Origin: an uncultured Candidatus Saccharibacteria bacterium
Lineage (GTDB): Bacteria > Patescibacteriota > Minisyncoccia > Phycocordibacterales > Zambryskibacteraceae
Direction of reading: 5' to 3'
DNA: 64,000 bases
NCBI GenBank assembly: GCA_964642835.1
Contig: CAZXQA010000001.1
Coordinates: 325,387-389,386 of the forward strand
In this document: positions 48,540 through 49,408 of the stretch, piece by piece
Position numbering within the stretch: position 1 is the stretch's first letter
Layout: each line of letters opens with the position of its first letter
Translations under genes and position numbers: made by a program
Notes under the pieces: model-generated
Told to the model about the DNA's origin: nothing
The model's input: the letters and a program-made list of their open reading frames with translations, nothing else
Database searches by the model: none

Positions 48540-49103
48540 TTAATACTTCCGAAGCACCGCCTTCACCACCGCCGCGATCCGCAATTCCTCGGTGGGATAG
48601 ATCGGCTTATATTTCTTATTCCCCGGTTCGAGCCAGACCTTGCCCGTCTTCTCCCGGTAATACTTCATCGTCCATTCCCCATCGACTTCGGCAATGACGA
48701 TCTGTCCGTCCTTCGCGCGGCTCGTCCGCTCGGCAAGGACGCGATCCCCAGGGGCGATGTGAGCGTCAATCATCGAGTCACCATCCACCTCGAGCATGTA
48801 GGTAGATTCCTTTTTCTGGATAAGGAACTCATCGAGACTAATGGTATCCGAGAGCTCTTCTACCGCCGAAGGGATACCTGCCTTCACAAAGCCAAGCATC
48901 GGGATCTCATCAAAGAGATTCGTCGGCACGAGGCGGCCCAAGTGATCCTTGGCCACGACTCCAGCTTCCACGAGCTTCTCGACGACCTTGGCGACGGCGT
49001 TCTTGGACTTGAAGCCGAGGAGCACCGCCATCTCGGCATACGTCGGCATGCGTTTCCGAGACTGGTAGAATCCGAGAATTTTGTCGGCGTGACTATCGTG
49101 CAT
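48540..49103 (-). CDS. lexA: LexA repressor (S24 peptidase).
   Basis: An N-terminal wHTH, and a C-terminal S24 domain with the catalytic Ser in GDSM and the Lys in the KY... region. Confidence 0.9.
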   Translation of the reverse strand: MHDSHADKILGFYQSRKRMPTYAEMAVLLGFKSKNAVAKVVEKLVEAGVVAKDHLGRLVPTNLFDEIPMLGFVKAGIPSAVEELSDTISLDEFLIQKKESTYMLEVDGDSMIDAHIAPGDRVLAERTSRAKDGQIVIAEVDGEWTMKYYREKTGKVWLEPGNKKYKPIYPTEELRIAAVVKAVLRKY

Positions 49104-49314
49104 ATTCGTTTGTCACCAATCCTACCATGCGACCAAGGAAGGACTTCGGCTTGTGCCTGAGCTCCCTCGTGAGACCAAGGAGGCGCTTGTGGCGCTGAGC
49201 CTCACTGCCATACCCCAGTCCGGAGAGAATCTTCCGGTCAATACTTTCATTGAGCCTTTCGAGCTCCTGTTCAACGATGTGAAGATACTGGTGTTTGGTC
49301 ATGGCAATAATCAT
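49093..49314 (-). CDS. Hypothetical 73-aa basic protein, co-transcribed upstream of lexA.
   Basis: MIIAMTKHQYLHIVEQELERLNESIDRKILSGLGYGS... The stop overlaps the lexA start, and a LexA box lies in its promoter. Confidence 0.5.
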   Translation of the reverse strand: MIIAMTKHQYLHIVEQELERLNESIDRKILSGLGYGSEAQRHKRLLGLTRELRHKPKSFLGRMVGLVTNEYAR

Positions 49315-49339
49315 TAAATGAGTATGTCATGAGTATAAG

Positions 49340-49355
49340 TGAACGATCGTTCACC
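49340..49355. promoter_or_regulatory. LexA operator (SOS box) of the GAAC-N4-GTTC type.
   Basis: The perfect palindrome GTGAACGATCGTTCAC lies 26 nt upstream of the small-ORF/lexA operon start and overlaps a TATACT -10 region. Confidence 0.6.
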
Positions 49356-49408
49356 GACCAGTGGACAACGCAGTACGACACAAAAATAAAAGGCTTTCGA
49401 GACCCGTG

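Follow-up and report, generated by a model that had tools for sequence, protein, structure and literature searches.

A conserved small gene and lexA in a probable self-repressed SOS operon of a Saccharibacteria-like bacterium

What is the role of a small gene, without a curated family, that lies immediately in front of lexA, and are the two genes switched on together when DNA is damaged? The question is raised by a locus in a stretch of 64,000 nucleotides, called here the window, from an uncultured Candidatus Saccharibacteria bacterium. An earlier note, made from the letters of this DNA, had proposed that the two genes form an operon autoregulated by LexA, the repressor of the SOS response to DNA damage. 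The identity of LexA, the invariance of the operator and of the -10 hexamer, the selection acting on the small open reading frame (ORF) and the fixed pairing of the two genes all support this proposal: we give a probability of about 0.8 to a self-repressed SOS operon, made of the small gene and lexA, under a single LexA operator. With similar confidence, we probably have here the master locus of the SOS response on the chromosome of a Saccharibacteria-like bacterium of the Patescibacteria.

The second gene of the pair encodes a protein whose autopeptidase domain is recognized by the Pfam model Peptidase_S24 (PF00717) with 85.6 bits, for a cut-off of 23.3. Over its full length, the protein passes the NCBIfam equivalog model of LexA (TIGR00498) marginally, with 112.8 bits for a cut-off of 110.95, and its N-terminal domain remains below the cut-off of PF01726 (LexA_DNA_bind), at 17.5 versus 23.7. 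Residues were assigned by alignment to the E. coli and Thermotoga LexA structures. Residues 18-50, the winged helix-turn-helix region, align with residues 24-56 of E. coli LexA; the Ala-Gly cleavage site (here Ala75-Gly76) is kept, with VKAGIP on E. coli VAAGEP, and so is the Ser/Lys dyad, with GDSM on GMSM (Ser119) and TMKYY on TVKRL (Lys156). By these alignments, we have in the S24 protein a genuine LexA with all the canonical parts.

In front of the small gene lies the candidate operator, a palindrome whose GAAC-N4-GTTC core (GAACGATCGTTC, at 49341-49352) is of the Gram-positive or Cheo type, as the earlier note had recognized. That note had the perfect palindrome right in sequence and one base too high in position (49340-49355), and it made the box overlap the -10 region. 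What we find instead is a box that occupies the whole 17-nucleotide spacer between the hexamers TGGTCG and TATACT, and that abuts the second of these without overlap (Table 1). From TATACT to the ATG of the small ORF there are 29 nucleotides, and 37 from the operator to the small ORF.

The relatives keep this arrangement. When 11 promoters are aligned, a single block is invariant: GTGAAC-N4-GTTCAC, then (T/C)TATACT. The comparison extends to 15 distinct promoters, from Saccharibacteria to Parcubacteria/Paceibacterota: all of them have GTG(A/T)AC-N4-GTTCAC and TATA(C/A)T, and the core is exact in 14, the exception being the locus labeled L015, which has GTAC in one arm and a -10 that reads TATAAT where the aligned promoters have TATACT. 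The distant loci have TTGACA, perfect or nearly so, 17-18 nucleotides upstream of the -10, and the operator is thus the exact spacer. An independent confirmation that box and -10 are conserved together is found, again in sequence, in mis-called genes: several members of the small-protein family have gene calls that are too long, and these open with ER(S/A/P/V)FTY(T/N), the peptide obtained when GAACGnnCGTTCACTTATACT, the box with the -10, is translated.

The same motif probably serves a regulon, since a second LexA-type box, GTGAACTAGTGTTCAG, is found at positions 6080-6095 of locus L014, where a gene for ribonucleotide reductase (ATP-cone and small subunit) begins about 47 nucleotides further downstream. 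This box agrees with the LexA regulon of Patescibacteria, to which ribonucleotide reductase genes reportedly belong. Within the window, there are no boxes with two or fewer mismatches near uvrA (4559-7165), uvrB (7781-9880) or uvrC, which fits a small regulon and bears out the earlier remark that uvrA and uvrB lack an upstream box. In locus L013, the second gene after lexA, read in the same direction, encodes a Y-family polymerase (IMS/dinB-like, 4168-5472) and may belong to the lexA transcription unit.

Table 1. Features of the small gene-lexA locus, in window coordinates
Feature	Position	Strand	Remarks
lexA, 187 amino acids, winged helix-turn-helix and S24 autopeptidase	48540-49103	minus	ATG 49103-49101, TAA 48542-48540
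Overlap of small-ORF stop and lexA start, 11 nucleotides	49093-49103	minus	TAG 49095-49093, ATG 49103-49101
Small ORF, 69 amino acids and TAG, isoelectric point 10.0	49093-49302	minus	stop TAG 49095-49093
-10 hexamer TATACT	49332-49337	minus	one base (T) 3' of the operator
Candidate LexA operator GTGAAC-GATC-GTTCAC (GTGAACGATCGTTCAC), perfect 16-base-pair palindrome	49339-49354		Gram-positive/Cheo-type core
Weak -35-like hexamer TGGTCG	49355-49360	minus	17 nucleotides from the -10; TTGACA at the same place in distant relatives
DnaA-box-like 9-mer TTGTCCACT, 7 of 9 matches to the consensus TTATNCACA	49360-49368	minus	degenerate in the window

If the two genes form an operon, they should be found together elsewhere, and the earlier note had its interpretation depend in part on this. 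Counting from the side of the small gene, it lies directly 5' of a Peptidase_S24/LexA gene, on the same strand, in 14 of the 14 places with gene calls: seven in Saccharibacteria relatives, and seven in distant Patescibacteria that include Parcubacteria GW2011_GWB1_36_5. The overlap between the stop of the small ORF and the start of lexA, also seen by the earlier note, measures 11 nucleotides, and the same junction, TATGNNCGATAR, is present in the close relatives L001-L003 and L006-L011. The distant junctions are overlaps of 8 nucleotides (L012, L015) or gaps of 1-2 nucleotides (L013, L016); for L014 and L017, the start of lexA is less certain. Among the Saccharibacteria relatives, both genes are found within a housekeeping block with prfB, rpsP, a KH-domain gene, trmD and rpoB; in the distant loci, all the other neighbor genes differ. 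The ORF for an 84-residue coiled coil upstream of the pair (49409-49663) was considered as a part of the module and rejected, because it shows no meaningful conservation when compared with the L001 counterpart and is absent in the other loci.

The start of the small gene had to be corrected. The earlier note described a basic protein of 73 amino acids, and a frame of this length is indeed open on the minus strand (49093-49314); however, all 13 close homologs, detected by a word-indexed search and 58-99% identical, begin at its fifth codon, and the true start is therefore the ATG at 49302. The protein is basic, as announced, and has 69 residues. The earlier note also suggested looking for its homologs, and they form a wide family: a full search with a hidden Markov model yields, at E<=1e-3, 290 representative clusters, with a length of 60-70 amino acids in nearly all of them. 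A profile search gives 138 proteins; among the 120 matches listed, few are named, always as 'hypothetical protein', and the sources of the named ones are Patescibacteria, Parcubacteria and Pacebacteria/Paceibacterota. The family thus appears to be confined to Patescibacteria, as far as the source names show.

In 88 sequences with 28-78% identity, residues M1, N18, I21, D22, Y31 and H38 are invariant, and E13, I25, G28, E34, K39 and L41 are nearly so, G28 being invariant in a smaller set. Between Saccharibacteria relatives, the proportion of synonymous differences in the small ORF is 0.46-1.0 (mostly above 0.6, and mostly saturated) versus 0.07-0.26 for nonsynonymous differences, and nine pairs, those for which dS is computable, give a ratio of nonsynonymous to synonymous rates (dN/dS) of 0.04-0.19. 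Judged from these substitution patterns, the small ORF encodes a genuine protein under strong purifying selection. AlphaFold2, given the family alignment, predicts a helical hairpin, with helices 3-27 and 32-49 and a confidence score (pLDDT) above 90. This fold is a generic one. The tail that follows is basic and rich in phenylalanine (F 16%, R 13%, S 13%; the isoelectric point for the family is about 10.6).

These elements suggest the following circuit. A single promoter would give a bicistronic messenger for the 69-residue protein, then LexA. A LexA dimer sitting on GTGAAC-N4-GTTCAC would exclude RNA polymerase, since the palindrome takes up the entire spacer between -35 and -10, and since this is how GAAC-N4-GTTC sites are known to behave. 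After DNA damage, RecA filaments would induce the self-cleavage of LexA at Ala75-Gly76 through the Ser/Lys dyad, the promoter would be freed and both proteins would be made, until the newly made LexA turns the operon off again. The start codon of lexA being within the end of the small ORF, the synthesis of LexA could well be coupled to the translation of its neighbor. Against this coupling we must set the rarity of Shine-Dalgarno-like motifs, which are found in only 5 of 35 genes of the window: none is clear before lexA, and such a lack is, alone, no proof of coupling.

Self-repression of lexA through GAAC-N4-GTTC is classical. The LexA protein of Bacillus subtilis (DinR) autoregulates through a Cheo box, of type CGAAC-N4-GTTCG, and the system described here resembles it by the core of the motif, by the location of the operator within the lexA promoter, and by a protein with a winged helix-turn-helix, an S24 domain, an Ala-Gly site and a Ser/Lys dyad. 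It differs by the flanks, which are GT...AC and yield the 16-base-pair GTGAAC-N4-GTTCAC, and by the rank of lexA, which is second in an operon instead of being transcribed alone. A Patescibacteria SOS network, of the same superphylum and the same kind of LexA control, has reportedly been obtained by comparative genomics (Sanchez-Osuna, Barbe, Erill 2017, Environ Microbiol 19:3465; cited in PMC8565304 and PMC7739468).

Because the pairing under a LexA site is conserved, the small protein would be an uncharacterized part of the damage response of Patescibacteria, and it is tempting to ask which part. In several phyla, small LexA-controlled division inhibitors are encoded beside lexA: YneA in Bacillus and Listeria, SosA in Staphylococcus, ChiZ (Rv2719c) in Mycobacterium and DivS in Corynebacterium. 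Pseudomonas has a lexA-sulA operon, and SidA and DidA are likewise division inhibitors of the SOS response. Those linked to lexA are lineage-specific and mutually non-homologous, and the present family agrees with this pattern. The small protein shares with YneA, SosA, ChiZ, DivS and SulA its size, its position under a putative LexA operator and its linkage to lexA, whereas its gene is upstream of lexA, co-directional and overlapping, rather than divergent or downstream. Since non-homologous small proteins under LexA control adjoin lexA in other phyla, we conjecture by analogy, and tentatively, that this one might be an SOS effector that imposes a checkpoint on the cell cycle or on division.

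Several observations weigh against this conjecture. The small protein has no match above noise in Pfam, NCBIfam, PHROGs or the sequences of the PDB; it has no homology to SulA, YneA, SosA or ChiZ, no LysM domain and no SulA fold. No transmembrane segment is evident, though no transmembrane predictor was run, and the reading of the tail as an amphipathic membrane-targeting helix of the MinD/FtsA kind is not supported, with a maximal hydrophobic moment of 0.51 versus 0.48 in shuffled sequences. The 12-residue helix predicted by AlphaFold2 at the C-terminus has low confidence. Finally, if a division inhibitor were produced along with the repressor, some of it would be made at the basal level too. 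Other leads were abandoned: weak COG2_N and PspAA matches of the window protein are not common to the family; a beta-clamp-binding motif in the tail (QL[SD]LF type) was rejected by eye, because its Gln is absent in the clade of the window and in many Parcubacteria members; and a factor of the Gre/DksA type, acting in the secondary channel of RNA polymerase, was rejected because the tip of the hairpin is variable and not acidic.

Instead of an independent effector, the small protein could work with LexA or RecA, as a co-repressor, as a modulator of the self-cleavage of LexA, as a regulator of RecA filaments in the manner of DinI or RecX, or as an effector that intact LexA retains and that its cleavage sets free. 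Tight coupling of genes is typical of proteins made in a fixed ratio, and the strict order, small gene then lexA, with a tight junction in all 14 places while other neighbors vary, is what a partner would lead us to expect, as is the apparent restriction to Patescibacteria. In the predicted hairpin, the invariant polar residues N18, D22, Y31 and H38, with the near-invariant E34 and K39, may form an interaction surface. However, canonical LexA acts alone, and the LexA of the window has all the canonical parts; furthermore, the small protein is basic, unlike DinI, which is an acidic mimic of DNA. We regard a partnership as possible, on the doubtful side.

A less domestic origin was also considered, in which the pair would be a mobile module similar to toxin-antitoxin systems, the S24 protein being a repressor of the phage CI type or of the type found in integrative and conjugative elements, and the small ORF a Cro-like protein, an antirepressor or a toxin. 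A small gene followed by an autoregulating repressor with overlapping frames does resemble toxin-antitoxin pairs and phage immunity cassettes, and restriction-modification genes adjoin the pair in L012 and L015, together with a transposase gene in L012. We nevertheless find this origin improbable: the S24 protein scores above the cut-off of the lexA equivalog and can be aligned along its length with LexA structures, the small protein has no PHROG match, the housekeeping block around the pair in Saccharibacteria relatives argues against a mobile element, and the operator in front of the ribonucleotide reductase gene of L014 points to a cellular regulon.

It is even harder to believe that the small ORF is a mere translated leader, which would set the translation of LexA through a peptide without a function of its own. 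A lexA start codon that falls inside the end of the ORF, and that no clear ribosome-binding site precedes, would suit such a device. Yet the peptide itself is conserved, with its six residues invariant in 88 sequences, a low dN/dS with saturated synonymous sites, and a stable length throughout some 290 clusters: selection acts at the level of the protein, and this rules against a pure leader.

The operator deserves the same scrutiny, and here some observations count against the self-repressed operon. The motif GAAC-N4-GTTC is seen 3 times in the window versus 1.54 expected, and 21% of shuffled windows reach 3; the promoter of the operon has a poor -35, and it was not called by a simple sigma-70 promoter scan of the window. 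Perfect palindromes of 16 base pairs exceed expectation, with five (at 1976, 4398, 24783, 47156 and 49339) for about one expected. By these tests, the operator motif taken by itself has no significance in the window. We judge it to be non-chance on account of where it lies and of its invariance across 15 distinct orthologous promoters. That the palindrome could arise by chance, be the site of another regulator, or be the terminator hairpin of the upstream 84-residue gene, whose stop is 55 nucleotides before it, is scarcely credible when the block stays with the small ORF where the upstream gene differs or is on the opposite strand, when no run of T follows it, and when it is an established Gram-positive LexA motif in front of lexA itself.

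The other two copies of GAAC-N4-GTTC, at 12245 and 15040, are within coding sequence, at chance level, the second one in priA. The first is a match of form GAACACGGGTTC in an unannotated ORF of 61 amino acids (12160-12345, minus strand) upstream of tgt, which is preceded by a strong promoter-like TTGACA-17-TATGAT. Of the palindromes, the one at 4398 (CGCTTAGGCCTAAGCG) falls between uvrC and uvrA.

Does the promoter receive a second signal? The first T of its -35-like hexamer is also the last T of a 9-mer that resembles a DnaA box. Degenerate in the window, this 9-mer is perfect in seven relatives, as TTATCCACA in L009, L012, L013, L015, L016 and L017 and as TTATACACA in L014; it matches at 8 of 9 positions in eight more loci, and at 7 of 9 in L011. 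Most Saccharibacteria relatives have TTATCCACt, and the window and L011 have TTGTCCACt. The 9-mer is always on the strand of the operon, at 31, 33, 41-43 or 52 base pairs from the -10, in groups separated by approximately one helical turn, and the sequence between it and the promoter is not conserved. With only 3 occurrences elsewhere in the window, the exact 8-mer TTATCCAC is not a general promoter element. This spacing would put the DnaA-box-like site and the promoter on one face of the helix, and suggests an input from the status of replication, to which we give somewhat less than even odds.

Such a combination has a precedent: the SOS genes uvrB, recN and dinJ of E. coli are under dual control by DnaA and LexA (PMC6015884). 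As in these genes, a sequence like the DnaA-box consensus adjoins a LexA operator in the promoter of SOS genes; the candidate site described here is, in contrast, at the lexA operon itself, and consists of one 9-mer only, with a phasing of about 31, 42 or 52 base pairs relative to the -10. Another parallel, by analogy only, is Sda of Bacillus subtilis, a checkpoint protein of about 46 amino acids that folds as a helical hairpin, has a gene controlled by DnaA boxes and targets sporulation kinases. Both are small hairpins, predicted in our case, encoded behind a DnaA box or a site like it, and linked to replication or damage stress; unlike Sda, the small protein has no match in Pfam or in PDB sequences, and sporulation kinases are not expected in these bacteria.

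Further elements were observed, some of them DnaA-box-like. Directly 5' of the 9-mer of the window, a block TGTGTCGTAyTGnG (49369-49382, minus strand) is also found in L001, L002, L008 and L009, and partly in L014. At 25269-25298, on the plus strand, DnaA-box-like TTATCCAC and TTATGCACA are 21 base pairs apart, upstream of a promoter-like TTGACC...TAAAAT and of an ORF that starts at 25364. A perfect TTATCCACA is present at 58551-58559 on the minus strand, with a TATAAT 29 nucleotides downstream of it and then a gene for a pilin-like protein (58006-58461, N_methyl motif), which belongs to a type IV pilus cluster with T2SSF and T2SSE genes at 58566-62538.

As for the surroundings, the window also encodes uvrC, uvrA, uvrB, priA, a UvrD/AddA-like helicase, ligA, rpoD, dnaG and the type IV pilus genes. 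UvrC (2969-4216, minus strand) has 415 amino acids for a model of 574 positions, its best stretch covering model positions 7-232, with a second stretch besides; UvrA (4559-7165, minus strand) has 868 amino acids for a model of 943 positions, and is matched in two stretches. Both may have lost domains. A search of Rfam in 48200-50100 returned tRNAs only. The window has tRNA clusters at 1219-1800, with three tRNA-Ala isoacceptors, at 48247-48482 and at 49681-50048, and the operon is flanked by two tRNA-Thr just downstream of lexA and by two tRNA-Met and a tRNA-Asp just upstream. Many genes of the window have a TATAAT-like hexamer 6-10 nucleotides before their start, for example at 4216 (minus), 28612 (plus), 34367 (minus), 21560 (minus) and 56071 (minus), which suggests that leaderless messengers are frequent; in L013 and L014, the ATG of the small ORF is 6 nucleotides after TATACT.

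What appears to be new, on this comparative evidence, is a conserved partner gene of lexA, small and devoid of a curated family, that extends over the superphylum, and, more tentatively, a second regulatory input. One could go further and imagine that the Patescibacteria, whose cells are ultra-small and mostly episymbiotic, have a core SOS protein specific to this lineage, a basic helical hairpin of 60-70 residues that is always produced with LexA, acts with it or is freed by its cleavage, and halts the cell cycle. Its operon would integrate DNA damage, sensed through LexA, and the status of replication initiation, sensed through a helically phased DnaA box; taken as a whole, this picture is speculative, and we think it rather unlikely. 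The conserved and phased DnaA-box-like site nevertheless suggests that the SOS switch may be connected to the control of replication, which is directly testable, and some Saccharibacteria can now be cultivated and genetically manipulated. An unannotated family of small proteins is tied to lexA across a superphylum of heavily reduced genomes: that such a gene was retained despite genome reduction suggests that it has an important role in the DNA-damage response of these tiny, host-dependent bacteria.

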